From the IMG/VR virus record IMGVR_UViG_3300044259_000172: a DNA stretch of 64,000 nucleotides. The stretch is one strand, 5' to 3'. A program made the position numbers and the translations under genes. This document shows, one piece after another, positions 8,931-45,735 of this stretch. Position 1 is the first letter of the stretch, and each line of letters begins with the position of its first letter. The notes below the pieces were generated by a model. It had not been told where the DNA came from and did no database searches. It saw nothing but the letters and a program-made list of their open reading frames with translations. This DNA comes from a virus. Lineage: Duplodnaviria; Heunggongvirae; Uroviricota; Caudoviricetes.

Positions 8931-9526
8931 TGACAGCTGGAATACAAATTATAAATAATTCCGGTCAATATCAAGTTATTCAAGATGGATTAAATTATTG
9001 TTTTAAATATAAAACTTCATTCATAGCAACTCCGACTACTACCTCTGGTAGCGATTTTAGAAATGCTAATGATGTAACAATAAGAATCTCTGGAAGCCAG
9101 AGATCAATTTTATCATATAAAACTAATGGAGTTTATATAGTAGGAAATTTTGATCCAACTTCTTATTCAGGAGGATCTATGAATTTAAATATTTCTTATA
9201 TAAATCTAACAGGAGGAAACCAAACTGTAGAAATTTTCATATTTGATAGAATTTTTGATAGAACAAATTTCGGAATGGAAATTTATGATTCTTCTGGAAA
9301 TGTGACAATGACTACCGCTTCTAGACCTTTAAGAATTGCAGGATATGCAAAACCGGGGTATTCGTTCATTGTAAATAATTTCGGAAGTTATCTTTATGAT
9401 ACTATGAACCCATTCTTTTTAAGAAATGGAGGTTCCGATGTTGAATTATCAAAACAATGGGTTTTTGATAATGTCCAGAGATTTGCTCCTACTCTTTATC
9501 TTTTTGTAGATAATGATGGAATATAA
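8930..9526 (+). CDS. tail-fiber-associated protein (198 aa), paralogous N-terminus
   Basis: start overlaps previous stop (ATGA); N-terminus MTAGIQIINNSGQYQ and internal MEIYDSSGNVTM repeat of same motif; bidirectional terminator follows. Confidence 0.5.
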   Translation: MTAGIQIINNSGQYQVIQDGLNYCFKYKTSFIATPTTTSGSDFRNANDVTIRISGSQRSILSYKTNGVYIVGNFDPTSYSGGSMNLNISYINLTGGNQTVEIFIFDRIFDRTNFGMEIYDSSGNVTMTTASRPLRIAGYAKPGYSFIVNNFGSYLYDTMNPFFLRNGGSDVELSKQWVFDNVQRFAPTLYLFVDNDGI

Positions 9527-9553
9527 AAAGGGAGGATTTTAATCCTCCCTTTT
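9527..9553. terminator. bidirectional rho-independent terminator hairpin (ggaggatt-tt-aatcctcc) flanked by T/A runs
   Basis: perfect 8-bp stem between convergent genes 8930..9526(+) and 9571..9831(-). Confidence 0.6.
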
Positions 9554-9570
9554 GACTTATTTAAAATTTA

Positions 9571-9831
9571 TTAGTGGAAAGACCCTGTACCACCAGACTG
9601 GACGGTAATAGTTTCGAAAGTTTTACCACCTCCGATACCAACATATGGAACATCACACTTAGTATCGAACTTTCCAATAGGACTCAGACGCTGACAATCC
9701 TTGACTGTTCGATATGGATGACCTGCAATTTGATATTCAGACGACTTCATAGAAGTAGTATATGTTCCAACAGTAGAACAACCTGATACCAAAACAATTA
9801 CAGCTACACTTGCAATAAGACTCTTGATCAT
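9571..9831 (-). CDS. small lipoprotein (86 aa; signal peptide plus lipobox LVSGC)
   Basis: N-terminus MIKSLIASVAVIVLVSGCST; convergent with tail fiber genes. Confidence 0.6.
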   Translation of the reverse strand: MIKSLIASVAVIVLVSGCSTVGTYTTSMKSSEYQIAGHPYRTVKDCQRLSPIGKFDTKCDVPYVGIGGGKTFETITVQSGGTGSFH

Positions 9832-9870
9832 TTTATATTCCTTTTTATCAGAGATTATTCTCTATGGATT

Positions 9871-9901
9871 ATTTATAGATCAATTCATAGAGAATGTAAA
9901 T
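9871..9901 (-). promoter_or_regulatory. T4-early-like sigma70 promoter (minus-sense TTTACA-17-TATAAA)
   Basis: read directly: tgtctaTTTACAttctctatgaattgatcTATAAAT about 40 bp upstream of ATG 9831. Confidence 0.5.
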
Positions 9902-9915
9902 AGACAAAATGAAAA

Positions 9916-11058
9916 TTATTCCATTCTTTTTCCAAAATGGAATTTCTTGATCACCCCAAATCTCAAAGCATCCGCAGACGTATATCCCTGAAATTTTACA
10001 GTGGCTTCTGTATTAATAATTTCATCTCTAGATTCAAAAATCTTTTTCAAGAAATCTTTTGTTCCTTTAATTCCAGATTTTGAAATAGTTCCTTTAGGGG
10101 TTCTAACTTTTGCAGATTTCGCAATTCCTTCCCAATTTCCTTTTCCTTCATTGATTTCCAAAATTTTCATTTCAGCATCAATAAAGGTTTTATGCTTTAG
10201 AAGATTATCAGATCTTCCGAAGGTATAAGGAGCAAAAGGATTTCTGAACATCATTCCTTCATAACCGGCTTCAAGATATCTCTCATGAATAATCTCTGGA
10301 TCTTCAATATCGATAGAGATAGTTTCTGATTTTACCAATCTTACGGTCTTCATTGGAATATTGTATTTAGTAAATACCTCAATGAGATATGATTCTCTTT
10401 CATCGAAAGACATATCTGGATGATCATGAACAATTACGTCATAAATATGGAACTGAACTTTTTCGCGAATTTCTTCAAGTGTAGGCTCAGGAATAGAACT
10501 AATTTTCTGCTTTTTAATAAAAGAAGAAAGTTGCTCAAAATCATCCTTAAATTCATGATTGTAGAGTTCCCCATCAAGAGTGATGTTTTCTTTTTCCGTA
10601 AGATCTCTGATTTCTTCAATAATATGGTCCGCTGTATAGAAGGGTTTACCTGCCCTGGATAAAGCTGAATTATGGTCAATAACTGATCTAATTCCGTCAA
10701 GCTTAGGTTGAGTTTTCCAGAAGAACATTTTTCGTTTAATAAATTTAGCTTTATCAAACTTATTAGCCAATTGGGGTTCTTGAAAATTACGTCTTCCAGC
10801 TGATTCTGGAGTTTCTGAGTATTTTTGCTCAAGTTTTTGTCGATATATGGATTTAATTTCCCGATCGGCTTGCTCTTCAGCAGTAGTGGAATTCGACTTA
10901 CCTTCGTTCTTGGCATAAGATGTTTTCCAATCAGATTGTACAATTGCCCCACCTAGGACACCTGAGTTTGCCCGAGTCTTGAAACCTTCACGTTCCATCC
11001 ACCAAACTCTTGTATTCCCATTCGAATCAATATTATAAAGCTTCTTATAAACTTCCAA
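9916..11058 (-). CDS. gp30: ATP-dependent DNA ligase (T4 gp30-type)
   Basis: KxDGxR motif (KLDGIR) and adenylation-domain pattern. Confidence 0.85.
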   Translation of the reverse strand: MEVYKKLYNIDSNGNTRVWWMEREGFKTRANSGVLGGAIVQSDWKTSYAKNEGKSNSTTAEEQADREIKSIYRQKLEQKYSETPESAGRRNFQEPQLANKFDKAKFIKRKMFFWKTQPKLDGIRSVIDHNSALSRAGKPFYTADHIIEEIRDLTEKENITLDGELYNHEFKDDFEQLSSFIKKQKISSIPEPTLEEIREKVQFHIYDVIVHDHPDMSFDERESYLIEVFTKYNIPMKTVRLVKSETISIDIEDPEIIHERYLEAGYEGMMFRNPFAPYTFGRSDNLLKHKTFIDAEMKILEINEGKGNWEGIAKSAKVRTPKGTISKSGIKGTKDFLKKIFESRDEIINTEATVKFQGYTSADALRFGVIKKFHFGKRME

Positions 11059-11083
11059 TTAATTTTATCCTTTTATTTCTATT

Positions 11084-11269
11084 TTAATTTTTTATATTGA
11101 ATTCTTCATTATAAAATTTTACAAGTTCAGATAAACATTGTAAAGCGGAAATATTATCAATTTGATTTGATGATCCACCATCTTCACTGAATTTAATAAT
11201 TTCATCCAAATCCCAACCATAATCAGAGAGAATTTTGTTCATCATTTCATAAAAATTTTCATTCATCAT
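11084..11269 (-). CDS. hypothetical acidic protein (61 aa)
   Basis: ORF; promoter-like motif TTTACA-17-TATAAG just upstream (11276-11304). Confidence 0.4.
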   Translation of the reverse strand: MMNENFYEMMNKILSDYGWDLDEIIKFSEDGGSSNQIDNISALQCLSELVKFYNEEFNIKN

Positions 11270-11275
11270 TATTTC

Positions 11276-11304
11276 CTTATATCATATCAATTTTAGAATG
11301 TAAA
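11276..11304 (-). promoter_or_regulatory. T4-early-like promoter (TTTACA-17-TATAAG)
   Basis: minus-sense aatTTACAttctaaaattgatatgaTATAAGgaaataATG. Confidence 0.45.
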
Positions 11305-11759
11305 TTACCATATTTTAAATTTGCTCTTAATTTTGTCAAAATTGAACAAAATTCTCTTTCGGTTAGAACTGTTTCAGATTCTTTTGAACTTCCTATGGAA
11401 TGAGTTAAAACTGAATCTTCTGAAGCTAATAGTGCTTTCTTGAACCCAGGATTGTCGCTGAGTGCAACATAAGCTCCGATCAATAGTTCTCTATATGCAG
11501 GAGAAGAACGTTTCATAGGAACCCCTTTCCACCAAAGAGTCTGAATCTTTTTCCAGGCTTTGTTTCTCTTTTTGCCTTTAAATTTTGCGGCTTTCCCTAC
11601 AAGTTTACAAACTTCAATTTGAATATGTTCTTTGTCATATTTGAGCGATTGTAAAAATCCTTCCATAGAAGCACATTCTACCCCATCAAACACAAAGGAG
11701 TGTGGGGCAAAATTTGACAAAGCATTTGAAGGATAAGAATTACCTGAACCTATATTCAT
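11277..11759 (-). CDS. NADAR/YbiA-family protein (DUF1768; ADP-ribose-processing N-glycosidase family)
   Basis: motifs LSNFAPHSFVFDGVECASMEGFLQSLKY and ALLASEDSVLTHS align to YbiA FSNFA...DG...SEHYFQAQKF ... ALLLAT...LVEH. Confidence 0.65.
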   Translation of the reverse strand: MNIGSGNSYPSNALSNFAPHSFVFDGVECASMEGFLQSLKYDKEHIQIEVCKLVGKAAKFKGKKRNKAWKKIQTLWWKGVPMKRSSPAYRELLIGAYVALSDNPGFKKALLASEDSVLTHSIGSSKESETVLTEREFCSILTKLRANLKYGNLHSKIDMI

Positions 11760-11768
11760 TTGAGGGAA

Positions 11769-12257
11769 TTATCTCCGCTTAAGATTTTCGATCAATTCAG
11801 AAGTAGTCTGATCCCAATCTTTAAATAGAATTCCAATACCACCAGCTTCTCTCCATGGATTGATATTTTTAATGAAATCGTCAATCAAAATATCAAAAGG
11901 ATTTTGCATAAAATTTTTCTTACACTTCCCACTATTCATAGGAAGAACAAGATAATCCTTTTCAGAAAATTCTCTACGAATTGCCTTAATTTTTTGCTTT
12001 GCGATATAATCATAATTTTGGATTGGACAAGCGGTCAAGAAGATTGGTTCAAACCCAGAATTTTCAATAAATTGAATTCCTTCAATGGCACCTTTAATCA
12101 AAGGAAGATCATAGAAAAATTCATTCTCATGAGAATGAATATAATTCCAAAGTTCAGAATCTGTCACTTTTGTAGGATGAGATCCAAAACATTCTTCGAA
12201 ATGTTTATCGAAATCAAACATTACTCCATCAAGATCTACAAAAATTCTTTTCGCCAT
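11769..12257 (-). CDS. HAD-superfamily 5'(3')-deoxyribonucleotidase
   Basis: N-terminal VDLDGVMFDF (DxDGV) motif and size typical of NT5C-like deoxynucleotidases. Confidence 0.65.
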   Translation of the reverse strand: MAKRIFVDLDGVMFDFDKHFEECFGSHPTKVTDSELWNYIHSHENEFFYDLPLIKGAIEGIQFIENSGFEPIFLTACPIQNYDYIAKQKIKAIRREFSEKDYLVLPMNSGKCKKNFMQNPFDILIDDFIKNINPWREAGGIGILFKDWDQTTSELIENLKRR

Positions 12258-12700
12258 TATTCAATATATCCTTTGATCTTTTCTATAAATTTTTGAGCCT
12301 GATCAGAACTAACTGAAAATTCTTCTTTAATAATATTCATTATTTCAGAAATATTGTCATTGTATTTTCCTTCAATCCTGATAGATTTAGATGACTTAAC
12401 TGTAACGATCAAATCCCCATCATCATTTCCAATTTCTACAGAAATATCATCTTGATCAAAAATATCATCATCAATAATTCTAATAAGAGTTTGCCATCCA
12501 TCCACGGAATCGAAAAATACTTTTATCCTAAGACAATCATTAATTCTAAATGTCTCATTTGTATAAAATTCATCTTCAAACAAATATGCTGATGATGAAT
12601 TTTTAACTTCCTTCAGGCGTGTTTCAATAATATCATCAGATCTTGTGCGAATATTTAAAACATATGTTGTCATTTTTCTTCTTTCTAATTTATAAACCAT
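12257..12700 (-). CDS. hypothetical protein (147 aa)
   Basis: ORF track, operon packing. Confidence 0.45.
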   Translation of the reverse strand: MVYKLERRKMTTYVLNIRTRSDDIIETRLKEVKNSSSAYLFEDEFYTNETFRINDCLRIKVFFDSVDGWQTLIRIIDDDIFDQDDISVEIGNDDGDLIVTVKSSKSIRIEGKYNDNISEIMNIIKEEFSVSSDQAQKFIEKIKGYIE

Positions 12701-12957
12701 TCGAAAAAACTAATAAATTGTTCATCAATCTTTTCGAATAAAGTAAGTTCAATAAAATCAAAATATGAACTATTTCCTTTTAAACAAAATCCTTCTAAAG
12801 TAAATACCCCATTTTCAAGAAATTCAATTTCAAAACTAAATCTCATTGAGGAAAAATGGACAACAAAAGAATTTTCACTTTCCTGTATTTTATGAAATGG
12901 AATTAAGAATGGAAATAATCTTAGTATTTCATTTAATTCCTGATTTTTTTGATTCAT
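12685..12957 (-). CDS. hypothetical protein (90 aa)
   Basis: ORF track. Confidence 0.4.
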   Translation of the reverse strand: MNQKNQELNEILRLFPFLIPFHKIQESENSFVVHFSSMRFSFEIEFLENGVFTLEGFCLKGNSSYFDFIELTLFEKIDEQFISFFEWFIN

Positions 12958-13195
12958 TATTTGAATTGATGATTGAGGTTACATTAATTTTTAGAGAACA
13001 ATTGCAACAATAAATTGAGGCAATTGTATCAGGATCTTGGATTGACGTTTCATTATAAATTACATCGGCATGAGTAAATTCAAGCCCTGCTGAACATCTA
13101 GAACATTCCACAAAATAGTTAGTAGGAGGAGATATAATTTTCATTTTAATTAAAATCCTTTTTATTTTTAGAATACTTTGATGCAATTGGATCAC
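12929..13195 (-). CDS. hypothetical protein with CxxC...CCxC zinc-ribbon-like cysteines
   Basis: ECSRCSAGLEF ... CCNCSLK. Confidence 0.4.
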   Translation of the reverse strand: MIQLHQSILKIKRILIKMKIISPPTNYFVECSRCSAGLEFTHADVIYNETSIQDPDTIASIYCCNCSLKINVTSIINSNNESKKSGIK

Positions 13196-13355
13196 CTACA
13201 GTATTGAGATCAAATTCTGGCCATTCTTTTGCCAAAACTTCCCATTCTCCATGTGTCCAACATCTAAGAAAGGTAGAAGCTTCAACTCCTTGAGAAATGG
13301 CAAATTCAATCGCAGAATTAAAAGCTGTCCGCATCGATTCAATATTTTTATTCAT
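13146..13355 (-). CDS. hypothetical protein (69 aa)
   Basis: ORF track. Confidence 0.4.
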   Translation of the reverse strand: MNKNIESMRTAFNSAIEFAISQGVEASTFLRCWTHGEWEVLAKEWPEFDLNTVGDPIASKYSKNKKDFN

Positions 13356-13369
13356 TGAAACCTCTTATT

Positions 13370-13573
13370 TTAAGAAATTGAAGAAGAGATCTGGATAACT
13401 TTTTCAGGAGGATTTTTAAAAACCAACATCGATTCAACATAAAGATTATATTGAATACCTGCTTCTGACATATGTTTCATATATCCATGAATATCTCCAA
13501 TGGCAATAGCTAGCTCTGCCAAAGAGCAATAATACATATATTTTTCCCAAAGAGTTTCTGATTCTTTATTCAT
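13370..13573 (-). CDS. hypothetical protein (67 aa)
   Basis: ORF track. Confidence 0.4.
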   Translation of the reverse strand: MNKESETLWEKYMYYCSLAELAIAIGDIHGYMKHMSEAGIQYNLYVESMLVFKNPPEKVIQISSSIS

Positions 13574-13881
13574 CCTACAATAATCTCCTTGATAATTTCC
13601 TTGAAATATTTAGAAACTTTTTTAGGATTTGTTTCAGAAAAAATTACTTCACGAAATCCATCAACTGTAAAAATTTTAATAGTAATAATAGAGAGCGTAA
13701 TATCCCAAAGCTCTTCTGCCAATTTTTTAGAAAATGAATTCAATTCCTTAATTTCAAATTCATCAATATCCCTAATAGATGTTTCTCCATCTTCATATTT
13801 TTCAATAATAACAAGACGAAGATAATTTGGATCATCCATTACTTTTTCAAAAAGAATTTCGATATTAACCTTAGTGACCAT
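13570..13881 (-). CDS. hypothetical protein (103 aa)
   Basis: ORF track; 4-bp overlap with downstream gene. Confidence 0.45.
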   Translation of the reverse strand: MVTKVNIEILFEKVMDDPNYLRLVIIEKYEDGETSIRDIDEFEIKELNSFSKKLAEELWDITLSIITIKIFTVDGFREVIFSETNPKKVSKYFKEIIKEIIVG

Positions 13882-14032
13882 GGCGATAATCTTTCCTTTT
13901 ATAAGACCCTTTCCCCTTTTTAGGGGAAATGATTTTATTTTTGAAAATCTTCATATTAAGAGCTTTAGCATGAAGATTATGATTTTGTTTATGTTTTACT
14001 TTTAACACAATCTTCATTTGATGTACACCCTT

Positions 14033-14392
14033 TTATTTGAATCTATCTAAAATAATATTCTTCGTATTTGATTTACCCGTTTTAATAAAAACTTCATATT
14101 TTTCGTCAATAAATTTTTGAAGTTTTTTCCAATATTTTCCTTTGAAGAAAATAAAATTTCTATCAGGTCTAATTTCAATAGATTCATATCCACTCAGGTC
14201 ATAGCAATAAAATGAAGAAATTTTAAACTTTTTCATTATAGCCCAATTAGTAAAAATTGAAATCTTTGAATTTTTAATTTCTGCTTGTAAACAATTTCGA
14301 TATTCACAGAAATCTTTATATGAACAAGTTATTTTAAAATCCGAAATTATATTTTCATAAATCTTTTTATCTATGATAACCGATCTTGACAT
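14033..14392 (-). CDS. hypothetical protein (119 aa)
   Basis: ORF track. Confidence 0.45.
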   Translation of the reverse strand: MSRSVIIDKKIYENIISDFKITCSYKDFCEYRNCLQAEIKNSKISIFTNWAIMKKFKISSFYCYDLSGYESIEIRPDRNFIFFKGKYWKKLQKFIDEKYEVFIKTGKSNTKNIILDRFK

Positions 14393-14398
14393 AAAATA

Positions 14399-14788
14399 TC
14401 ATTCCTTCTTCAAATTTTCTACGATGAATTTGTCGATGATTTCAGGGGATTCTTTTACTTTAAGAATATTTGAAATATTTTTCTTCAATTCCTTTTCAAT
14501 TCTCATAAAATTGAAAGATTTGAAACCTCGATAAAATGGAATAATCTTAAAAGAAATTCTTTCCATTTTATCATAAATTTTAATTTCTTTCAATTTATTC
14601 TTTTTCCAACAATAATATAATCTTAGAAAGAATCGATTTGTATCGGGCAAATCGATTGAAATATCATTACTTCTTGAATGTACATCGTAATCTCTCAATT
14701 TATCCATATAAGAAATAATGGTCGAAGTTAGATCATTAGAAGGAAAGGGAATATCCCTATTTGGATATCTTGAAATCTTAAAAGTCAT
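14399..14788 (-). CDS. hypothetical protein (start revised to ATG at 14788; ORF-track 14950 start overlaps neighbour by 172 bp)
   Basis: internal Met gives 11-nt overlap with upstream stop, consistent with packing. Confidence 0.4.
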   Translation of the reverse strand: MTFKISRYPNRDIPFPSNDLTSTIISYMDKLRDYDVHSRSNDISIDLPDTNRFFLRLYYCWKKNKLKEIKIYDKMERISFKIIPFYRGFKSFNFMRIEKELKKNISNILKVKESPEIIDKFIVENLKKE

Positions 14789-15026
14789 TATTGCTAAATT
14801 CCTTATAAAGTTTCTGAATGGCCTGATCCTTTGTAGTGGCTCGGCCTCGCTTACTATTTTTAAAATGTCTATATCGAGTTTCATATCCCCATTTATTTTT
14901 GGAAATTTGCCAAATTTTTCCAATATCATCAGGATTTTTATAACTTCCATATCTCAAAAATTTATAAGGATAATAAATGAGAGTTTCAAACTTGCGATCG
15001 AATTTCACTCTGAATGTATTATTCAT
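14778..15026 (-). CDS. hypothetical basic protein (start revised to ATG at 15026, MNNTFRVKF)
   Basis: 8-bp overlap with stop of 15019..15492. Confidence 0.4.
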   Translation of the reverse strand: MNNTFRVKFDRKFETLIYYPYKFLRYGSYKNPDDIGKIWQISKNKWGYETRYRHFKNSKRGRATTKDQAIQKLYKEFSNNDF

Positions 15027-15492
15027 ATTCAATTTCCTCTGAATCAAAATCCCCATCTGCATCATCAAATGAGTCATCTTCATTAATGAAAGTATTACAG
15101 ATTATAGCTCCATCCCAATTTCCATCTTTAATATAAACTGGAACTTTAGAATAAACTTCAAATGAAGATCCTTCGATACCAAAATCAAACATTTCAACCA
15201 ATTCAAAAGGAATAATTGAAAGAGTCCCAGAATCGACATCTACATTTTTATATTTTCCGTCAATAGAAATTGATAGATATGAACCATCTCCAAAAGCCGT
15301 ACTTGAATAGATTAAAGGATATTCTTTTCCGGAGAAAGCTAAAACAATTTTTCCTGATGTCTCAAGGGCTGAACATAAAATATCCCAATTATCGCCAGAG
15401 AAAATATAACAAGGATCTACAAATATATACTTTCCTGGTTCAATAAAAAATTCATTACCATTATCATTACTTACGATTACAATTTCCGACAT
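15019..15492 (-). CDS. hypothetical acidic protein (157 aa)
   Basis: ORF; promoter-like motif upstream. Confidence 0.45.
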   Translation of the reverse strand: MSEIVIVSNDNGNEFFIEPGKYIFVDPCYIFSGDNWDILCSALETSGKIVLAFSGKEYPLIYSSTAFGDGSYLSISIDGKYKNVDVDSGTLSIIPFELVEMFDFGIEGSSFEVYSKVPVYIKDGNWDGAIICNTFINEDDSFDDADGDFDSEEIEYE

Positions 15493-15518
15493 TTCAATTC
15501 TCCACTATTCTAGAATAT

Positions 15519-15547
15519 TTTATACATTAAAATTATTAGAATGTAAA
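15519..15547 (-). promoter_or_regulatory. T4-early-like promoter (ATTTACA-17-TATAAA)
   Basis: minus-sense gaATTTACAttctaataattttaatgTATAAAatattctagaatagtggagaattgaaATG. Confidence 0.45.
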
Positions 15548-15886
15548 TTCATATTCAGAACAAAAATGTTTTCCCTTTGAACCAATATGTTGATTTAATT
15601 CATCTATAAATTGTTTCATAAACTTTTTGGCTTGAGCATCTGAATTGAATTCAAATTTGTCCCAATCCCGATCATACCAAATATAAACTCGAGCAAGATA
15701 ATACCCATATTCACGCTTTGGCTTCAATGTAGGCTTTCCGAGAAGTTTCCTGAAAAAATTTCTAATAGGATATTTCAGAATTCCTTTTCCTCGGCTTCCA
15801 GGTTTCCAATTAATAGATCGAATTTTGGAAATATTTACAAACTCATTTGAATTTGCAATTCTACAAAAAGGATTATAATCAGTCAT
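15536..15886 (-). CDS. hypothetical protein (116 aa)
   Basis: ORF track; start overlaps stop of small upstream ORF (ATGACTGA). Confidence 0.45.
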   Translation of the reverse strand: MTDYNPFCRIANSNEFVNISKIRSINWKPGSRGKGILKYPIRNFFRKLLGKPTLKPKREYGYYLARVYIWYDRDWDKFEFNSDAQAKKFMKQFIDELNQHIGSKGKHFCSEYEFTF

Positions 15887-16040
15887 CTTCTACTTCACCT
15901 AACAATTCTCTGGCAAAATCGATACCTTCCCAATTATCAACTCCTGCATTTTCAAGAGCATCCAACCAATCAAGTTGTTCCTTGATATCATCCCACTCTT
16001 CTTTTGTTAGAGTTCTTGATTTATCTTCATGTATAATCAT
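15883..16040 (-). CDS. small hypothetical protein (52 aa, MIIHEDKSRTLTKEEWDDIKEQLDWLDALENAGVDNWEGIDFARELLGEVEDD), missed by ORF track
   Basis: hand translation; stop overlaps next start in ATGA fashion. Confidence 0.45.
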
Positions 16041-16068
16041 TTCAAAATCCTCTTAATTGATAAAATAT

Positions 16069-16100
16069 TAGGGGTGATTCAATTTAAAGAATCACCCCTA
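16069..16100 (-). terminator. rho-independent terminator (12-bp stem taggggtgattc/gaatcaccccta)
   Basis: perfect inverted repeat directly after stop of RNA ligase gene, followed by T-rich run on minus strand. Confidence 0.6.
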
Positions 16101-16106
16101 AATGAG

Positions 16107-17162
16107 TTATATGCTCAATTCCAAAACTTCAGTCTGAATTCTCTTTTGAAAATAAGAGACTGCAATATTGTTTACATATTTTGCAATAGTTTTCCAATCC
16201 TTGCCATTATCTTCCATTTCAGCCAAACATTCTTTTTGGACATCTCCTGCTACCCATTTCAAGAAGCTAGAAACTTCCTTCATGGTAAGAGGAATAGTTC
16301 CATTTTCAGAAACTACATCATATCCTTGGGACAACCTGGCATCAGTAACAAGACTCTGAGCAAATTCAGCATTTTCGGACATCTTTTCAGTATTCACATT
16401 AACTGCCTTGGCAGATTTTGTCGTACGATGAGCTTCACACTTTGCCTTAAAAATATAATGCTCTGAATAGGAAAGTCGATCATAAAATACCAGACCTTCG
16501 CCAGGACCTTCAATACCAAATTTATCCTTGATATAAGGATCAACATCTCCAATTTCTTCAATCAAAGGATTAACTAGATTGAGGAAATCTTCAACATTCT
16601 TTATATTGAACAAATCAATATCGAAATCATTTTCAAAGAACCATGGAAGAATGTGAATTCGATTCTTTGAACGTTCATCGATATATTTGAACAATTCTTC
16701 CAAATTGTCACTGATTTCATTTGGTTCAATAATATAAGATCGCGTATAAGAATCTGGATACAAACTATCCTCAATAGAGAAGATAAAGAAAGACTTTTGC
16801 TCAATCATTGAACACCCAGCATTCTTTTGAATTCCAGGACCTGCCCATTCTCCATGAACAACATGACCTTCGAGGAAATGTTTTGCGTATGGGTTCAACA
16901 TTTCCCATGCAGGCTTAATTACAACTTCTACCCATTGAGCAAATCCAAAATTATCAGATTCGACACTCAAAAGTCGAGTTCGTCCCTGGGCAACAGGCCC
17001 ATTAGATGTAAAGAGAATTCCAGCATTAGTTCCATGCAATTTGATTTTTGCATTATAACTCACATTATGAGTATGAGTCTCAGGCTTAAAGATATCAAAA
17101 TGCTTCTTTACGGAACGATACATGTTCGTAAAATTGTCGATGTCCATCCATTTTTTATGCAT
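16107..17162 (-). CDS. rnl2: RNA ligase, T4 Rnl2 family
   Basis: motif I KLHGTN (KxHGxN) and HGEWAGPGIQKN matching T4 Rnl2 FGEFAGPGIQKN. Confidence 0.8.
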   Translation of the reverse strand: MHKKWMDIDNFTNMYRSVKKHFDIFKPETHTHNVSYNAKIKLHGTNAGILFTSNGPVAQGRTRLLSVESDNFGFAQWVEVVIKPAWEMLNPYAKHFLEGHVVHGEWAGPGIQKNAGCSMIEQKSFFIFSIEDSLYPDSYTRSYIIEPNEISDNLEELFKYIDERSKNRIHILPWFFENDFDIDLFNIKNVEDFLNLVNPLIEEIGDVDPYIKDKFGIEGPGEGLVFYDRLSYSEHYIFKAKCEAHRTTKSAKAVNVNTEKMSENAEFAQSLVTDARLSQGYDVVSENGTIPLTMKEVSSFLKWVAGDVQKECLAEMEDNGKDWKTIAKYVNNIAVSYFQKRIQTEVLELSI

Positions 17163-17184
17163 AAATTTTTCCTATATGTTAGAG

Positions 17185-17370
17185 TTAAATCAGCTTCTTA
17201 ATTTCAAAATTGAGATTTTCATTCAGACGAGACTTCTGATCTGAAGCTTCAAGAGCTTCATCAAAATATCCTTTATTCACCAAAAATTCACGAGAATCAT
17301 CAAGTTGAATGATGATGTCCTTTACTTTAAGAATTTCTTCCTGAAAAACAATTTCTGTATTTGCGAACAT
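17185..17370 (-). CDS. hypothetical protein (61 aa)
   Basis: ORF track. Confidence 0.4.
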   Translation of the reverse strand: MFANTEIVFQEEILKVKDIIIQLDDSREFLVNKGYFDEALEASDQKSRLNENLNFEIKKLI

Positions 17371-17423
17371 TTTAGAGACTTTCTATTTTCTCGTTGTTGA
17401 TGTATTTTTTATAAACTAGAATA

Positions 17424-18566
17424 TCAATGATGTACATACGTAGGATTTAAAAATTCAAAATAATTCTTTATATCCTCATAATTTAATTCATAATCAAATT
17501 TACACCACAATTGTTCCATTGCTTTAATCACTTCCCCTAATTCCTTTGAAGGTTTCAGATTGAAATCTTCCATAACCCTCTCAGCCTTCACAGGAGACGG
17601 ATTTTTAGGAAGATGAAAGTAACCAAACATCCTAAAATCGATAGTCCTGGCAATGTCATACATGATAGGACCATATTTAAATAAGATATAATTTGGATGC
17701 TCAGTTGTAGTTTCCAAAATATCAATCAATTCCAAAGTTTTATTTTCTACTTTAGACAATTTGAGATTTCGAATTTGATTCTTCGAAAGCCCCATAGAAT
17801 AAAGAGTCAGAACTGGATGATCTGGAAAATGAATCATTTTTTCATAATTCAACTCTTTCCCAAAAATTTCTTTAGAAACTCCTGTATAATTCATATGATG
17901 AAAAATCAATTTGTTTAATTTATTCAATTTCATCGAATTCATTTTCCAAATTTCTGAATGGATTCTTTCTTTGGAAATCATAGACAAAGATTTTGAATGT
18001 TTTGAAATGATATCCAAAACATCTTGGTCGATTTTAAAATCTTGATATTTCACACAAAATCTGAAAAATCTAAGAATGCGAAGATAATCTTCCTGGATAC
18101 GGTCTTCTGGATTTCCAATAAAGACTACCTTTTTATTCTGAAGATCTTGAATTCCTCCAAAATAATCATAGATATTTCCTTCAGAATCCATAGAAAGAGC
18201 ATTAAATGTAAAATCTCTACGAGAAGCATCAACCTCCCAATCTTCAACAAATCTCACTTCTGCGTGGCGGCCATCTGTTTCAACATCCGCTCGAAGAGTA
18301 GTGATTTCAAATGATTCATCATTAAAGGTAACAGTAACTGTTCCATGTTGAAGCCCTGTAGGAGCAAAGGACAATCCCACTGCTTCCGCAATATCCTTAA
18401 TATTGTCAGGAAAGGCTGTCGTGGCAATATCAATATCATTTACAATTGTTCCGGAAATTGCATCCCTTACACAACCTCCTACCAATCTGGCTTGATAACC
18501 AAAATGATTAATCAATTTTAAAATTGAGATCGCATTTTTGAAATTTTCAGGAATTTCGATTTTCAT
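17424..18566 (-). CDS. cca: tRNA nucleotidyltransferase (CCA-adding enzyme / poly(A) polymerase head-domain family); start revised to ATG 18566
   Basis: LVGGCVRDAISG...DIDIATTA motif (GGxVRD...DxD); RBS AGGA before ATG 18566; a hairpin lies inside the ORF-track N-terminal extension. Confidence 0.75.
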   Translation of the reverse strand: MKIEIPENFKNAISILKLINHFGYQARLVGGCVRDAISGTIVNDIDIATTAFPDNIKDIAEAVGLSFAPTGLQHGTVTVTFNDESFEITTLRADVETDGRHAEVRFVEDWEVDASRRDFTFNALSMDSEGNIYDYFGGIQDLQNKKVVFIGNPEDRIQEDYLRILRFFRFCVKYQDFKIDQDVLDIISKHSKSLSMISKERIHSEIWKMNSMKLNKLNKLIFHHMNYTGVSKEIFGKELNYEKMIHFPDHPVLTLYSMGLSKNQIRNLKLSKVENKTLELIDILETTTEHPNYILFKYGPIMYDIARTIDFRMFGYFHLPKNPSPVKAERVMEDFNLKPSKELGEVIKAMEQLWCKFDYELNYEDIKNYFEFLNPTYVHH

Positions 18567-18634
18567 GGGATATTTTCCTATTTTAGAAATGATTATGGGT
18601 TCAGTATATACTGAACCCATTTCTCTGTACATAT

Positions 18635-18853
18635 TTAAATCAAAAAATTTATGAAAGCTAATGATGTAATATATGATTGGATAATACACATTATAAAGAT
18701 TAATACGTAAATTACTTGCACTATTAGATTTTTTTCATCTAATTCAATTTGTTTCGAAACGTATTTTGACACAACATTTGCAATAGCACAGGAATAACAA
18801 ATTATATAGACGACTAAAAGGATACTTATTATATAATGAGCCGCTGTGATCAT
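18635..18853 (-). CDS. possible small hydrophobic membrane protein (72 aa)
   Basis: ORF track; two hydrophobic stretches; could be artefact. Confidence 0.3.
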   Translation of the reverse strand: MITAAHYIISILLVVYIICYSCAIANVVSKYVSKQIELDEKNLIVQVIYVLIFIMCIIQSYITSLAFINFLI

Positions 18854-36239: not shown

Positions 36240-36580
36240 TTTTGAATTTCTTTCTTGAGTTCTAATAGAAGATTTCTATCTATATTTACCATATCCAAAG
36301 ATCTATCTAATAGAACTAAAAATGTATTGATAATAAACCAATCCTCTTCCTTTGTGGATGCTTTTATAAGTCTTATGACATAAAGAGGATGGAATACATT
36401 AAATAAAATAATGAGATGATTTATTATCAATCTAAAATTGGGAGGCTTTTTCCCGTTTTTTAATTTTGAAATCAATTTCTTTAAATGGGTTATTCTGACC
36501 AGATCTTCTTCCAAATCATCTACATGGAATTCATTGTTCAGAAACATTTTTGCTGAAGAATACACTTCTTGTTTTGTCAT
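36236..36580 (-). CDS. hypothetical protein (about 103-114 aa; start probably the internal Met at 36547)
   Basis: ORF track. Confidence 0.4.
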   Translation of the reverse strand: MTKQEVYSSAKMFLNNEFHVDDLEEDLVRITHLKKLISKLKNGKKPPNFRLIINHLIILFNVFHPLYVIRLIKASTKEEDWFIINTFLVLLDRSLDMVNIDRNLLLELKKEIQK

Positions 36581-37112
36581 GCGGAGGTCTTACGTGTCCT
36601 TGTAAAGCTACTGAGACCTTGCGATAAACCTCTAATGCCTGATTAGGAGAAAATCTAGAAGAAAAATTCTTCAAAAATGATTGATAATCTCCAATTTTAC
36701 AAAAGTCTCGCATTTCAGTAGCACTGATATTATATTTATCGCGCATAGCAAAATTCAAAACTCCTAATTTGGATTTATAATCCTTTTGATATTTCTTAAA
36801 CAGTGAAGAAAATTCCTCACATCTATCACCACCTACAATAAAATTGATTTCATCATATTCATCAGAATTAAAAGAATCAATAATTCCAAAAATTCCGGTT
36901 TTTCCAAGATTTGAAAGATAATCTCCAAACCCCATCTGATAAATGATATCATATTTTTCATCAAATGAAAGAGGATCGGTTTTGTTATTTTTAGTAAAAG
37001 TAGGGCAAATGAAAAATTCACCCTCTAAATGTTTTCCAAAGTTAAATAATTTCTCATGACCGATATGAGGAGGGTTAAATCTCCCATATGCTATATTTGC
37101 TATCATTTTCAT
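36531..37112 (-). CDS. HxGH nucleotidyltransferase, NMN adenylyltransferase (NadM)-like
   Basis: GRFNPPHIGH (G.F.P.H.GH) near N-terminus and ISATEMR (ISGT.IR-like) near C-terminus. Confidence 0.5.
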   Translation of the reverse strand: MKMIANIAYGRFNPPHIGHEKLFNFGKHLEGEFFICPTFTKNNKTDPLSFDEKYDIIYQMGFGDYLSNLGKTGIFGIIDSFNSDEYDEINFIVGGDRCEEFSSLFKKYQKDYKSKLGVLNFAMRDKYNISATEMRDFCKIGDYQSFLKNFSSRFSPNQALEVYRKVSVALQGHVRPPHDKTRSVFFSKNVSEQ

Positions 37113-37909
37113 TGTGATTTAAATTCTTCATATTTTGTATAAAAGATATTTGGAATTTGGACATTCTTTCGTTCCAATCCTTTGATGGTTTCTTCCAAAA
37201 CGAATGCACAAGATTTTAAAGAAAATCTCTTATCCATATTCTTCAAAATATCAATAGAATCCATCCTATATCCATTTTCTTGAGAATATCTTTCTGGAAT
37301 AATAGAATCTCTAAAATTTTTAAATGAATGACCTAGAATAAAAGGTTCATCTAAGATTTTTACAGGATTTACCAAATATTTTCCAGTAGCTTCGGACTTA
37401 TATGTATAGGTAGATTTAATCAGTCCTTCAAATAGAGTATAACGGACCCTTTGAAAAGTATTAACCTTTGTTCGATCCATAGAAAGAATTACAGGATTAT
37501 GGACAATATTTACAAGATGAAATAATAGTTCATTTCTATAAAGTGCTTTAAATGGATCATTCGAAGAAACAGTGGTAGCTTCCTTAACCCAATCATCATA
37601 AATATTCTTTTGTGAAATGATATTAATATCAACTTGGACATCCTGGAAACACAAGAAAATTGTATTTCCATGCGTTTCGATTTTATATCCAGACTTTACA
37701 AATAGACCTAGTAGTTGAGAGATTTCATGGTCACTATAAAGAGCTACATCAATATCTCCAAATTTAGCATTAGGATTTGCCGAATTTGATGATCCTATAA
37801 ATTTAAAATCACTGCCTCTAAATCCTAGATTAAGAATAAATTGATTCACTTTCTTCTTGTCATCTTGATTTGCATCTCGAGTTAAGCCCTTAAAAATCTT
37901 ACCACCCAT
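37109..37909 (-). CDS. putative Pol-beta-superfamily nucleotidyltransferase-fold protein
   Basis: IGSSNSANPNAKFGDIDVALYSDHE fits the GS-x(9-13)-DxD nucleotidyltransferase signature. Confidence 0.45.
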   Translation of the reverse strand: MGGKIFKGLTRDANQDDKKKVNQFILNLGFRGSDFKFIGSSNSANPNAKFGDIDVALYSDHEISQLLGLFVKSGYKIETHGNTIFLCFQDVQVDINIISQKNIYDDWVKEATTVSSNDPFKALYRNELLFHLVNIVHNPVILSMDRTKVNTFQRVRYTLFEGLIKSTYTYKSEATGKYLVNPVKILDEPFILGHSFKNFRDSIIPERYSQENGYRMDSIDILKNMDKRFSLKSCAFVLEETIKGLERKNVQIPNIFYTKYEEFKSQ

Positions 37910-37910
37910 A

Positions 37911-38702
37911 TTAATTCACTTCTCCAAAAATTTTGTCATTAAGAGGAAAATCATCCTTATTAAGATCTAAACATAATTTTACTAGTTTATCATCTATTTT
38001 CATTATAATTCCTTCATAGATTTCGCCATTCCTTGGTTTAATAGATTTAAAATATTCCACAAGTTTATTCTTGATTTTGTATCTAAGTTCCCTATATTGC
38101 TTTTTGAAGGAAAAGATGTCAGGGTGAGAATCAGCCAATTCCTTTATTTCTTGCCCTAAATTTTTATCAAATTCTACCACAATTCCACCAGGAAGCTTAA
38201 AATTAACCCCTTCTACTTCAGGCCATTTTCCATACATAGAAAATTTAACATCATGAAGAATAAAAGTGTCGGCTACAAATGTATCATGAGGAAATCTAAT
38301 AGTAAAGGATCGATATTCATCAATAACCTTTGAATATTTCAATGGAAAATATTCAAAAGAAATATCTTGCCCCTTCTCAGGATATTGATTTGCAATATTA
38401 ACCCTAATAAACCTTTGAAAAGATTCAGAATCAATTAGAGTTTGTCCAATCAATCCAATATCTTTGGAGAAATCTGTTTCTTTTGCCCAGTAAACATATT
38501 GGTAATAGGAATAGCATTCAGGAGAATTTGCTGTCTGAAAATACATATCCCCTTCACTATCAATTCCAAATGAGAAGAAAATTCCATCTTCCTTTTTTGT
38601 TTCAAAGATCAAATTACCCATATGATTATGGATATAATCCCACATAGAAATTTGATCTCTAAAAGAGCAATTATAGATATGAGGAATAGATTTCCGTTTC
38701 AT
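37911..38702 (-). CDS. hypothetical protein (263 aa)
   Basis: ORF track; in same tightly packed operon as the ThyA-like gene. Confidence 0.5.
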   Translation of the reverse strand: MKRKSIPHIYNCSFRDQISMWDYIHNHMGNLIFETKKEDGIFFSFGIDSEGDMYFQTANSPECYSYYQYVYWAKETDFSKDIGLIGQTLIDSESFQRFIRVNIANQYPEKGQDISFEYFPLKYSKVIDEYRSFTIRFPHDTFVADTFILHDVKFSMYGKWPEVEGVNFKLPGGIVVEFDKNLGQEIKELADSHPDIFSFKKQYRELRYKIKNKLVEYFKSIKPRNGEIYEGIIMKIDDKLVKLCLDLNKDDFPLNDKIFGEVN

Positions 38703-39706
38703 TATTTAAGACTCCAATAATTGGTTTGAACTCTCTCACCTTTAAAAGAGAACGATCTTGTCAATTTAAAATTTTTCAATAATGAATGATCCACTGAATC
38801 TGTATTCAGAATAGATGGGCAGTGATCATTCACATTTACAAATAATATTTTGTCAAACTTATCACACTTTTTATAATAAGTAAATTCAAATAATGCTAAT
38901 TTTTCTAAAAAAATGAAATAATCAAAATGTCCATTCTGATCAATTAAAGACATATTAATCCAATCAATCTCTCCTTCATCAAGATTAATCATAGTCTTTG
39001 AAAAGACAAATTTAAGAAAATCTATAAGATCACTCCATCTATTTTCAAAGACTTCAACAAAATAAAAATTGTTTATATTAATTCCAGTAAGATTAAAAAT
39101 TTCTTTAAATTCTTTTCCTGTTCTATTTTTTATCCATTCAATGCAATCTTTCTTTATAGAAGATAAAGGAATATGACTAGATTGAGAAGCCATTTTAGCC
39201 CCATTAGCCTTCACTTCAATATCTTCTCCATTTGATAATTGCATATCTCCAGAATTTTTAGCCTTTTTCGACCCCTCAGTTAGAAGAATAAACCCGTATT
39301 CACCTTTTCCTACAGAATTCTTTGAAAATGAAGTAGGAACATAATTTAATAATTTGGTAAGATTATAATTTGTTAATTTTGGATTAATAATATCATTCAA
39401 AGAAATTTGAGTTTTATAAGAAAGATTCAAATAATCTTGATCAAGAATTTTACCGCCGGTAATATCTTTAACCAATGATAAGATTTCTGTTGATGATTTT
39501 CCAGTATCTGGATCAAATAAAACTTCATTCATAAAATAACTAAAATCAGGGGAATTAAAGGAAATTCCCCTGGTTTCAAAGAGTTCTTTAGAAGCCATTT
39601 CTATTTTATCGGAAGTCATAATATAATAGGACTTATAAAGATATTGATAATCATTACACTGATCGATCCTCTTGGACAATTCAGTTTTTAGATCAGAAAT
39701 TTCCAC
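38702..39706 (-). CDS. hypothetical protein (334 aa)
   Basis: ORF track; 1-bp overlaps with neighbours. Confidence 0.5.
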   Translation of the reverse strand: MEISDLKTELSKRIDQCNDYQYLYKSYYIMTSDKIEMASKELFETRGISFNSPDFSYFMNEVLFDPDTGKSSTEILSLVKDITGGKILDQDYLNLSYKTQISLNDIINPKLTNYNLTKLLNYVPTSFSKNSVGKGEYGFILLTEGSKKAKNSGDMQLSNGEDIEVKANGAKMASQSSHIPLSSIKKDCIEWIKNRTGKEFKEIFNLTGININNFYFVEVFENRWSDLIDFLKFVFSKTMINLDEGEIDWINMSLIDQNGHFDYFIFLEKLALFEFTYYKKCDKFDKILFVNVNDHCPSILNTDSVDHSLLKNFKLTRSFSFKGERVQTNYWSLK

Positions 39707-39708
39707 AT

Positions 39709-40503
39709 TTATGCCTTAAATTTATCTGCTGCATATTTTAGATGTTCGATGAAATAATCATATGAAGTAAGTTTGGAATGAACAGTCATATCAATAAAAT
39801 CAATGATCTCACCATCTACAAAATTATGATTTGCATTATCCAATTTAGCCCACTGAATTGCATCTTCCCAATGCTTTTCATAAATATGAGCAGAACCTTG
39901 ATTGATTGTCAAAATTCCGAGATTAACATCAATTCCTCTTTGAAGCAAAAGGATTTGAACAACTTTTGACATCATTGTGAATGTGAATGAATCATACCCA
40001 AATCCCCAAATCATATCCTGAGAACGCATATTGACAACAGTACATAGCTTATTGTTTCTAATAAAGAATTGCATAGAGGTTGTACAAGGAACATCCTTGG
40101 ATCCTCTCGGATTTTCTCTCCAAATATTAAGAAATGCTTGACGAGAATCATTGTCAGCAATCAAAGAATCTACAACATAAGAAACTTGATCAATGAATTT
40201 TGGACCATAAGCTCCATTCAAAAATACTCCATTATCGGAATAATTTACATAAGATTTCATATATTGAGTAATATCAGATACTTTATTAGATCCTGAACAA
40301 ATCCACCACGCTTCACCAAAAGCAAAGGAATAATTAAGCTTTCTATCCTTTAGTGTGATAATTGGATCAAGCATATCAAATTTAATTTGGTATCCTACAA
40401 ATTCTTTGATGAGTTGACCTCTAGGTGAGACTTCATCCCCAAATGAAATAATATCATTAATACAATTTTGCCATTTTAAATTAATATCAAACAATTTAAT
40501 CAA
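39709..40503 (-). CDS. gp42: ThyA-fold pyrimidine hydroxymethylase, most consistent with deoxycytidylate (dCMP) hydroxymethylase (T4 gp42-like)
   Basis: VPCTTSMQFFIRNNKLCTVVNMRSQDMIWGFGYDSFTF aligns to ThyA [38 protein letters not shown] with catalytic Cys conserved and the pyrimidine-recognising Asn replaced by Asp (GYDSF), as in dCMP hydroxymethylases. Confidence 0.55.
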   Translation of the reverse strand: MIKLFDINLKWQNCINDIISFGDEVSPRGQLIKEFVGYQIKFDMLDPIITLKDRKLNYSFAFGEAWWICSGSNKVSDITQYMKSYVNYSDNGVFLNGAYGPKFIDQVSYVVDSLIADNDSRQAFLNIWRENPRGSKDVPCTTSMQFFIRNNKLCTVVNMRSQDMIWGFGYDSFTFTMMSKVVQILLLQRGIDVNLGILTINQGSAHIYEKHWEDAIQWAKLDNANHNFVDGEIIDFIDMTVHSKLTSYDYFIEHLKYAADKFKA

Positions 40504-41000
40504 ACCTTTTCTTTATCAATAACAAATGAATAATAGAATGCTAAATAAGCAGCGCAATCAATAAGACTATCAGCTTTTCCTTCAAAATTTGGAGAAGATT
40601 TAGAATTAAAAAGAGATTCAATTCTTTGGATCTTTGTCATAATCATATGAATATATGAAAAATCTTCAAATGGAAAATAATTAATTCTTGGATCATCAAG
40701 TCTAAATGTTTCATCATTAGCCTTGTTAGAATTATAATCTAAAGTCTTTTTTCTTAAAATAGAAAAAGTATCTTCGGAAATATTTTTATCCGTCAAAAAA
40801 TTATAATAATCTTTTACTACTCCAAAGATATAAATGAGTTCTTCTTTTGGAATTCCTGAATGATCAATTTTTTGAGTAGAAACCCAATCATCAATAAAGT
40901 AAACTAATTCATTAACATAGGTACATTCTTCTGCATATTGAGGACCTGAAAATGGAAAATTACCTTCATAATCCTCAAATAGTCTAATACTTTCAATCAT
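40500..41000 (-). CDS. hypothetical protein (166 aa)
   Basis: ORF track. Confidence 0.5.
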   Translation of the reverse strand: MIESIRLFEDYEGNFPFSGPQYAEECTYVNELVYFIDDWVSTQKIDHSGIPKEELIYIFGVVKDYYNFLTDKNISEDTFSILRKKTLDYNSNKANDETFRLDDPRINYFPFEDFSYIHMIMTKIQRIESLFNSKSSPNFEGKADSLIDCAAYLAFYYSFVIDKEKV

Positions 41001-41042
41001 AAATAACCTTTAATTTTCTAAGTATAGTTGAATATACATCAT

Positions 41043-41261
41043 TTATTCTGGAAAATACACCGGAATAAAAATGTAATTTTCAGAATTTACTTCAAAATCT
41101 CTAGACTTAGAAGATTGCTTAAGAGCAGCTCTAGCTTTTCCCTCCGTAGCATAAATTTTAGAAGTGAGAGAAGAATATCCTCCTCCAGTCTTTACTCGAG
41201 TTCCATCCTTTTTAGCGATAACAACACCTAGAAGTTTAGCCATTTTTAACATTCTCCACAA
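41043..41261 (-). CDS. small protein, paralog A of a duplicated pair (72 aa)
   Basis: GGYSSLTSKIYATEGKARAALKQSSKSRDFEV...IPVYF, similar to 41745..41948. Confidence 0.45.
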   Translation of the reverse strand: MWRMLKMAKLLGVVIAKKDGTRVKTGGGYSSLTSKIYATEGKARAALKQSSKSRDFEVNSENYIFIPVYFPE

Positions 41262-41745: not shown

Positions 41746-41948
41746 TATAGATATACCGGGACGATTTCAATTTCACCAGCCTCCCACTGTCTAAACTTAC
41801 TAGAACCAGCCATAGCTGTTCTAGCTGAATTTTCAGAAGCATAAGTCTTTCCAATTTCTGAATATCCTCCATTTTGAGTTTTTACGATATCTCTTGTATT
41901 CTTATAAAGAGCAATCCATGCGATAGGTAGATCAACTTCTTGAACCAT
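41745..41948 (-). CDS. small protein, paralog B of duplicated pair (67 aa)
   Basis: GGYSEIGKTYASENSARTAMAGSSKFRQWEA...VPVYL. Confidence 0.45.
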   Translation of the reverse strand: MVQEVDLPIAWIALYKNTRDIVKTQNGGYSEIGKTYASENSARTAMAGSSKFRQWEAGEIEIVPVYL

Positions 41949-41959
41949 TATTTTCTCCT

Positions 41960-42567: not shown

Positions 42568-42578
42568 ATATTTTTCCT

Positions 42579-42770
42579 TTAATCTAAATCTACAGTTGGA
42601 TTAATACCAACTCTATTAAAATCCCATTTATTATAAGCTAAATACGTTCTGCCTAAAGTATCCTCATATAAATTTACTGTTTTCCCATTCACAATATCAA
42701 TAAATCTATTATCTTCTATAAGTTTCATAGGAAAACCAAAGGTTAAAAACTTTAACATAGATGTTCTCAT
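42579..42770 (-). CDS. hypothetical protein (63 aa)
   Basis: ORF track. Confidence 0.4.
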   Translation of the reverse strand: MRTSMLKFLTFGFPMKLIEDNRFIDIVNGKTVNLYEDTLGRTYLAYNKWDFNRVGINPTVDLD

Positions 42771-43246
42771 AACTCAAACACTGTCAATTCTATATTGGGG
42801 TATTTTTTTAGGTTTTCTTTGATGATTTCTTCTATCTTTGACCAATCACCTCCGCCGAGTCCTGCTCCAATTTTAGGAATTGCAATTAGAACTGGTCGAT
42901 CCAAAAGCTCATAATATGAGAAGAATTTATCAAAACATGAATTGATAGCATCGTATGAAATTCTCATTCCAGGACCATATGTTTCTTGGGTGAAGAGATT
43001 CCAGACATCAGTTCCCGAATAATTACAAGCTAATTGATTAGTTCCTACTAAATCATTTGAATATCTCGATAAGCACAATTTTCTATAAGCAGTGAAAGAT
43101 AAAGGGAACTTTGCTTTAAATTGTTTTGCAAATCCAGCACTCATAACTCCTAAACAATTCACTCCATGAGCAATAGCATCATATTCAGAAATAAATTCAA
43201 AAAGATTTCCCCTTTTATAATTAATCTTGGATTGGGACAAGTTCAT
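42767..43246 (-). CDS. macro-domain protein (ADP-ribose binding/hydrolase family)
   Basis: YKRGNLFEFISEYDAIAHGVNCLGVMSAGFAKQF and PKIGAGLGGGDW match macro-domain GDI..DAIVNAAN..GGGV and P..G.G..G motifs. Confidence 0.65.
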   Translation of the reverse strand: MNLSQSKINYKRGNLFEFISEYDAIAHGVNCLGVMSAGFAKQFKAKFPLSFTAYRKLCLSRYSNDLVGTNQLACNYSGTDVWNLFTQETYGPGMRISYDAINSCFDKFFSYYELLDRPVLIAIPKIGAGLGGGDWSKIEEIIKENLKKYPNIELTVFEL

Positions 43247-45687: not shown

Positions 45688-45735
45688 ATTTGTAATCCTC
45701 TATTTAATTTAGATTGATCTTAACACATAAATTGA

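Follow-up and report, generated by a model that had tools for sequence, protein, structure and literature searches.

The window analyzed here, a stretch of 64,000 nucleotides of phage DNA, carries a gene whose product is very probably a single-domain, phage-type NADAR protein, orthologous to gp30.3/AdfN of phage T4, that would erase guanine-ADP-ribose and so act against DarTG1-type toxins. This AdfN-type (gp30.3 family) gene occupies exactly 11277..11759 on the minus strand, as seen in the ORF list and in the sequence; it starts with an ATG, and its stop codon lies within the end coordinate. The product, a predicted guanine-ADP-ribose DNA glycohydrolase, consists of 160 amino acids. An earlier sequence-only reading had placed a NADAR-type gene at these positions, and the full-length match to PF08010, the NADAR fold of the model and the presence of E33 and K40 bear this out.

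In the Pfam search, the protein matched PF08010 (Phage_30_3, 'Bacteriophage protein GP30.3') over its full length with 189.6 bits (E 2.9e-56, gathering cutoff 36), residues 9-145 of the ORF corresponding to profile positions 2-137 of 138. A match to phrog_652 was obtained in the PHROG search, and T4 gp30.3 is 43-44% identical (E 1e-34). A large protein collection contains 4047 homologues, one of which (P0001, JGI, on a 154-kb contig) is identical, and tblastn located homologues in 1508 phage records, mostly of T4-like phages of Escherichia, Klebsiella, Aeromonas, Acinetobacter and Vibrio. Judged by these sequence comparisons, a chance match is excluded for the family assignment. The 160 residues comprise one Pfam domain, with neither an N-terminal extension nor a fused domain, and form one compact model. 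Among the matches listed, the homologues are called 'hypothetical protein' in nearly all phage records, including those of Agrobacterium phage Atu_ph04, Vibrio phage D490 and Klebsiella phage LilPanda, and the OLIVR5 copy is called 'homing endonuclease'. Public annotation lags behind the AdfN assignment.

According to earlier bioinformatic work, as it is cited in PMC11543638, gp30.3 proteins constitute the phage branch of the NADAR superfamily. A profile search against NADAR/DUF1768 was the check named by the sequence-only reading, and its outcome is divided. Directly, the window ORF did not match PF08719 (NADAR, formerly DUF1768) in Pfam even at E<=10; it matched no NCBIfam model, and phmmer with the single protein returned no match among PDB sequences. 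Indirectly, the connection was recovered through relatives, as 21 of the 62 homologues (59-70% identical to the window protein) match PF08719, the best with E 1.3e-5. When the 62-sequence family profile was compared with the PDB, the sole match was E. coli YbiA (2b3w), a weak one (E 0.39) whose alignment spans the 'SNFA ... E-x6-K' segment. Alignment of the family profile to E. coli YbiA with hhalign gave a probability of 89% (E 2.2e-6) over residues 12-119. The sequence identity of the window protein to E. coli YbiA and the P. nicotianae NADAR (PnNADAR) is 18-20%. The AlphaFold2 model calculated from the alignment (mean pLDDT 91, pTM 0.88) displays the helical core flanked by small sheets that characterizes the NADAR fold, and in a Foldseek search of the PDB the top three places go to the solved NADAR structures, three in number (2b3w, 8bau and 8bat). 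Membership in the NADAR superfamily thus follows from transitive sequence evidence together with the fold, in place of a direct PF08719 match, and we regard the family membership of the window protein as practically certain.

The active site can be read against characterized NADARs. In PnNADAR, E43 and E125 hold the distal ribose while K50 holds the phosphates and the adenine of ADP-ribose, and the DarG1-type NADAR of E. coli C7 requires E88, K95 and D171 (PMC11543638). Glu33 of the window protein (codon GAA, 11661..11663, minus strand) is equivalent to E36 of T4 AdfN, E43 of PnNADAR and E88 of E. coli C7 DarG1, and aligns with T4 E36 and with the glutamate of the YbiA segment 'SEHYFQAQK'. Lys40 (codon AAA, 11640..11642, minus strand) aligns with K43 of T4 AdfN and is equivalent to K50 of PnNADAR and K95 of C7. 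Both residues are invariant across the 62 homologues, and their E-x6-K spacing is common to the window protein ('MEGFLQSLK'), YbiA, PnNADAR and the C7 NADAR. The third active-site position is occupied by His120 (codon at 11400..11402, minus strand), which is invariant in the 62 sequences and located in the last strand of the model (residues 119-120); a global hhalign alignment pairs T119-H120 with V124-E125 of YbiA. At this position, Glu is typical of the YbiA family, Asp of the DarT1-associated (BC4488) family and His of the phage gp30.3 NADARs (PMC11543638, PMC11125620, PMC12945103). The conserved catalytic Glu/Asp anticipated by the sequence-only reading was therefore recovered in part: E33 is invariant, as is K40, but the third position holds the histidine that is the signature of the phage family and is active in T4. 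Since this His is what defines phage NADARs, and the T4 enzyme functions with it, the lack of an acidic residue at position 120 marks the family and is no defect. The C-terminal α-helix (residues 134-150; 11310..11360, minus strand) is intact in the model, with a block pLDDT of 92-93, and aligns to the final 15 residues of T4 gp30.3. Hence, the window protein has all residues and elements that T4 AdfN is known to require.

Compared to the known members of the superfamily, the window protein most resembles T4 gp30.3/AdfN in architecture. Both belong to the same Pfam family over their full length, consist of a single core domain of ~150-160 amino acids lacking an N-terminal extension, share the E-x6-K motif, the histidine in the last strand and the intact C-terminal helix, and are carried by T4-like phages. 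The two proteins differ in that the window copy belongs to a much more conserved majority branch, the T4 copy being the divergent one, and in that the window protein ends in a 10-residue C-terminal tail of low model confidence. No equivalent of the internal T4 ORF 30.3' was seen in the window gene. DarG1 proteins (BC4488 family; E. coli C7, and Geobacter lovleyi, 8BAT) possess the Asp, an N-terminal extension and a DarT1 neighbor. In contrast, the window gene encodes the His, no N-terminal extension, and is an orphan within a phage genome, with no ART gene beside it as judged from ORFs, Pfam and PHROG. The window protein is not a DarG1, although it is predicted from its sequence to work like one. 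E. coli YbiA (2B3W) and the P. nicotianae NADAR (8BAU) carry Glu at the third catalytic position where the window protein has His, and the housekeeping N-glycosidase role of YbiA is unlike the role proposed here. Functional parallels outside the T4 type are AdfN(Bas32) and AdfN(Bas60) of T5-like and Vequintavirinae phages, which are likewise phage-borne anti-DarTG1 NADARs. They are set apart from the PF08010 type by their published description as members of other NADAR clades that were independently acquired and are active without phage context (PMC11825919).

The functional assignment derives from T4. In vitro, T4 gp30.3 removes ADP-ribose from guanosine in DNA, not from thymidine (PMC11125620). 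The name AdfN (anti-DarT factor NADAR) was introduced by Johannesman et al. (Nat Commun 2025, PMC11825919). AdfN is both required and enough for DarTG1 resistance of T-even phages, and its E36A and K43A variants are inactive (PMC11257639/PMC11825919). Under DarTG1, transposon insertions in 30.3 disappear, making the gene conditionally essential (bioRxiv 10.1101/2025.11.20.689424). In phage RB69, a frameshift deprives the protein of its C-terminal helix and leaves AdfN inactive (PMC11825919). This allele demonstrates that inactive copies can persist, and another phage NADAR protein, mentioned in the AdfN paper, acts independently of enzymatic activity, so that one may picture the window protein as an inactive remnant or as neutralizing a toxin by binding without catalysis. 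We consider such a state highly improbable: all catalytic positions are invariant, the C-terminal helix is preserved, strong constraint acts on the family, whose aligned homologues share 59-73% identity, and E36 and K43 are required in T4 AdfN. Given that the T4 orthologue acts as a guanine-ADP-ribose eraser in counter-defense (PMC11125620, PMC11825919; bioRxiv 10.1101/2025.11.20.689424), that portion of the sequence-only reading is well founded. Its wider statement, that modifications of the 'DarT type' are reversed, applies to DarT1 (guanine) and fails for thymidine-ADP-ribose and for DarTG2, the latter not being countered by T4 AdfN (PMC11825919). By orthology to the T4 protein, it is probable that the window protein shares the removal of guanine-ADP-ribose and the activity against DarTG1. 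The transfer bridges an identity of only 43-44% to the tested T4 enzyme and assumes a host that carries DarTG1.

We postulate the following course of events. The phage would infect a host equipped with a DarTG1-type or other guanine-directed DNA ADP-ribosyltransferase, and the toxin would move ADP-ribose from NAD+ onto guanine of the replicating phage DNA, blocking replication. The phage NADAR would then bind the ADP-ribosyl-guanine, with Lys40 positioned on the diphosphate and adenine and with Glu33 and His120 around the distal ribose. Hydrolysis of the N-glycosidic bond between ribose and guanine would release ADP-ribose, restore guanine and allow replication to proceed. Its target being the lesion and not the toxin, the enzyme should be effective against every toxin that makes this adduct.

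The same chemistry leaves room for an active NADAR hydrolase whose physiological substrate is something other than DarT1-modified phage DNA. It might act instead on guanine-ADP-ribosylated RNA, on adducts made by other ARTs (pierisin/ScARP-like, YarT-like or secreted toxins), or on by-products of ARTs that the phage itself encodes. All NADAR families remove guanine-ADP-ribose from RNA in vitro, and several other guanine-directed ARTs are described (PMC12945103, PMC11125620). Furthermore, in uninfected cells T4 gp30.3 gives no rescue from DarT1 toxicity (PMC11125620), and stand-alone genes of the gp30.3 type occur in bacterial chromosomes with no DarT neighbor. One PF08010 gene, ~65% identical, stands alone on a large Burkholderia ubonensis chromosome contig (LPHD01000049.1; L007 8001-8456), where its neighbors are a HipA-type (HipA_C) kinase, an HTH gene and numerous ORFs whose function is unknown; another, also ~65% identical, stands alone on a large contig of a Xanthobacteraceae MAG (L009 8001-8465). 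No DarT was found next to either gene. These chromosomal copies imply that the role of the family is not exclusively phage counter-defense. For the window gene, a different substrate is nevertheless unlikely, as T4 genetics link the orthologue directly to DarTG1 resistance and DNA de-ADP-ribosylation, and no phage ART was identified among the scanned ORFs of the window.

T4 AdfN attains its full function only in T-even infection, for which a phage factor is suspected (PMC11825919). T4 AdfN may thus need a phage cofactor, and the window protein might share this need. A different view is suggested by the conservation of the gene. Rhizobium phage RL38J1 carries a NADAR 63% identical to that of the window, its DNA polymerase being only 34% identical. 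More broadly, homologues in Rhizobium, Agrobacterium, Klebsiella and Vibrio phages are 60-66% identical to the window protein, those of Rhizobium and Agrobacterium phages reaching 63-66%, and the 61 aligned metagenomic homologues are 59-70% identical, with up to 73% by BLASTP. The NADAR is far better conserved than the core genes. This could be explained by frequent horizontal transfer, or by strong constraint on an enzyme whose target lesion does not vary. On account of the 63% identity to the RL38J1 homologue against 34% for the polymerase, and of the ~65% identity to the chromosomal stand-alone genes, we tentatively raise the somewhat doubtful idea that the window AdfN is a cofactor-independent form, a freely exchanged eraser that operates independently of host and phage, covers a wider range of guanine-directed ADP-ribosylating toxins and protects phages as well as bacteria.

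The immediate neighbors of the gene are those given by the sequence-only reading. Downstream lies an ATP-dependent DNA ligase (gp30-like; 9916..11058, minus strand; PF01068 E 4e-17, phrog_114 E 8e-70) and upstream an NT5C-type 5'-3' deoxyribonucleotidase (11769..12257, minus strand; PF06941 E 9.3e-8, phrog_2643 E 1e-40). An acidic ORF of 61 amino acids (11084-11269, minus strand), which has no Pfam or PHROG match, is situated between the ligase and NADAR genes and takes the position of T4 30.1/30.2. The stop codon of the nucleotidase is 9 nt upstream of the NADAR start, and a GGAG is found 13 nt upstream of the NADAR ATG, so the two genes are probably co-transcribed. The short distance from the ligase recalls T4, in which the gene order is 30, 30.1, 30.2, 30.3; this shared proximity is gene order and no evidence of a functional unit. 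The neighborhood is not conserved elsewhere. The gp30.3 gene adjoins a helicase in Agrobacterium phage Atu_ph04 and SbcCD in Vibrio phage D490, lies within the tRNA cluster in a Klebsiella Jiaodavirus, and had neither ligase nor NT5C within 3 kb at any of seven IMG/VR loci with 55-68% identical gp30.3 homologues. A conserved functional linkage to ligase and nucleotidase was rejected because the other phage loci and the seven IMG/VR loci lack it. The adjacency therefore carries no functional weight, contrary to its earlier use as a hint of function, and the two neighbors are context outside the proposed mechanism.

These loci also bear on whether the protein could be a YbiA-like N-glycosidase of small molecules or nucleotides that salvages or detoxifies nucleotides in cooperation with the deoxyribonucleotidase next to it. 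For E. coli YbiA, the annotation is N-glycosidase and an action on riboflavin intermediates is described (PMC11543638), and the window gene does follow an NT5C-type gene closely. Such a role is very improbable, since the protein has the phage-type His and not the YbiA-type Glu, no nucleotidase/ligase neighborhood was present at any other gp30.3 locus examined, and the T4 family member acts on DNA. An eraser of guanine-ADP-ribose in DNA remains our preferred reading of the gene.

The NADAR gene is embedded in a long same-strand run of replication and nucleotide-metabolism genes. The window has a G+C content of 30.5%, with baseplate and tail genes at its left end and a long minus-strand block from 9.5 kb onward. 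This block includes genes for RNA ligase, CCA-adding enzyme, primase, dCMP deaminase, ThyX-like and ThyA-like proteins and Dam methylase, as well as a gp41-like helicase, UvsX, a family-B DNA polymerase, clamp loader, clamp, gp46/47 and a gp55-like sigma factor. By this gene content the phage is T4-like, and it lacks a close sequenced relative: a megablast search of 9000-14000 against phage genomes gave no match. The DNA polymerase (52706-55213) is at most ~36% identical to any phage record, and the ligase (9916-11058) at most ~39%. A promoter scan of the window yielded 41 sites, compared with 40.3 expected from shuffled sequence. With no excess over chance, the scan lends no support to any expression timing; early expression of the NADAR gene is plausible by analogy.

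Several further features of the window were observed. Strong terminator-like hairpins occur at 9526-9553 (12 pairs), on the boundary between the plus-strand tail genes and the minus-strand block, and at 16068-16101 (13 pairs, minus strand), just downstream of the RNA ligase gene; within 9000-16500, nine terminator-like sites were counted, compared with 2.6 expected from shuffled sequence. At 16107-18689 (minus strand), the RNA ligase (phrog_548) adjoins the tRNA nucleotidyltransferase/CCA-adding enzyme (phrog_2244), and the two may form a tRNA repair pair directed against host anticodon nucleases. A lone plus-strand ORF of 300 amino acids (55248-56150) with six NUMOD3 repeats (E 9e-56) is located between the DNA polymerase and clamp-loader genes and probably represents the insertion of a homing endonuclease into the replication module.

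A possible pyrimidine hypermodification cluster extends over 36531-46653 on the minus strand. Its ThyA-like gene (39709-40503) scores well under the equivalog cutoffs for thymidylate synthase, and the best phage matches of this gene are annotated 'pyrimidine hmase' or 'deoxyuridylate hydroxymethyltransferase'. The flanking minus-strand genes comprise a cytidylyltransferase-like gene (36531-37112), three ORFs without a family (37109-39706), a hydrolase-like ORF (40500-41000), a phosphoesterase (41236-41745) and a NUDIX gene (41960-42382), with a dCMP deaminase (43526-44014) and a weak ThyX-like gene (45736-46653), both on the minus strand, nearby. These gene assignments suggest that thymine may be replaced by a 5-hydroxymethyl-dU derivative in this phage. 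The pyrimidine-hydroxymethylase-like genes would have gained relevance for the NADAR had AdfN been tuned to hydroxymethyl-cytosine DNA, an idea put forward in a 2024 preprint. This idea was rejected, as unmodified T4 still depends on AdfN in the published version; DNA modification does not explain the T-even dependence, given that T4-GT7 still depends on AdfN (PMC11825919).

A second candidate eraser is encoded at 42767..43246 on the minus strand. This orphan macrodomain is DarG2-like and orthologous to T4 Tk.4/AdfM, and is predicted to erase thymidine-ADP-ribose. It scored 22.2 bits against Pfam Macro (cutoff 22) and matched the NCBIfam model antitoxin_DarG with E 6.4e-21, a match covering the macrodomain part only (profile positions 1-147 of 338). 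Its best PDB matches are 5m3i (E 9.6e-13), which we take to be the DarG macrodomain of M. tuberculosis, and 5m31 (E 3.6e-11), with SCO6735 (5e3b) next in rank; the entry 5m3e, with the same sequence as 5m31, is the DarG2 macrodomain of T. aquaticus. With 32% identity (E 2e-17) to T4 Tk.4/AdfM, the ORF sustains the proposal of the sequence-only reading that both eraser classes are carried. T4 Tk.4 was named AdfM in the HIDEN-SEQ preprint, where it is required against DarTG2 (bioRxiv 10.1101/2025.11.20.689424), and a further example is the AdfM of a Chimallivirus (PMC13309987). In the window ORF, the equivalent of DarG N22 is kept, while that of K80 is Gln. A dead enzyme due to this Gln was considered and rejected, as the functional T4 AdfM shares the 'NL(F/Y)TQ' motif. 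SCO6735, a thymidine-ADP-ribose hydrolase (PMC9411070), also aligns Gln at the DarG K80 position. Homologues of both erasers are therewith encoded in the window, as they are in T4. The AdfM-like macrodomain is in keeping with pressure on the phage from DNA ADP-ribosylating defenses. The pairing of NADAR and macrodomain is not special to the window phage, because T4 has both and both are described.

Since T4 gp30.3/AdfN has already been published as a glycohydrolase that counters DarTG1, our interpretation of the window gene is supported by existing work and is not in itself new. New is the copy of the AdfN family in a divergent T4-like phage with 30% GC; the kind of gene was already known, and the conservation of the NADAR family relative to core replication genes is a mildly new angle only. 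In terms of annotation, a 'hypothetical protein' becomes an AdfN-type NADAR, and the gene at 42767 becomes an AdfM-type macrodomain. The anti-DarTG1 and anti-DarTG2 eraser pair recently recognized in T4 also occurs in a lineage with replication proteins that share only ~35% identity with their counterparts in any sequenced phage, which supports DNA ADP-ribosylation as an old and widespread pressure on T4-like phages.
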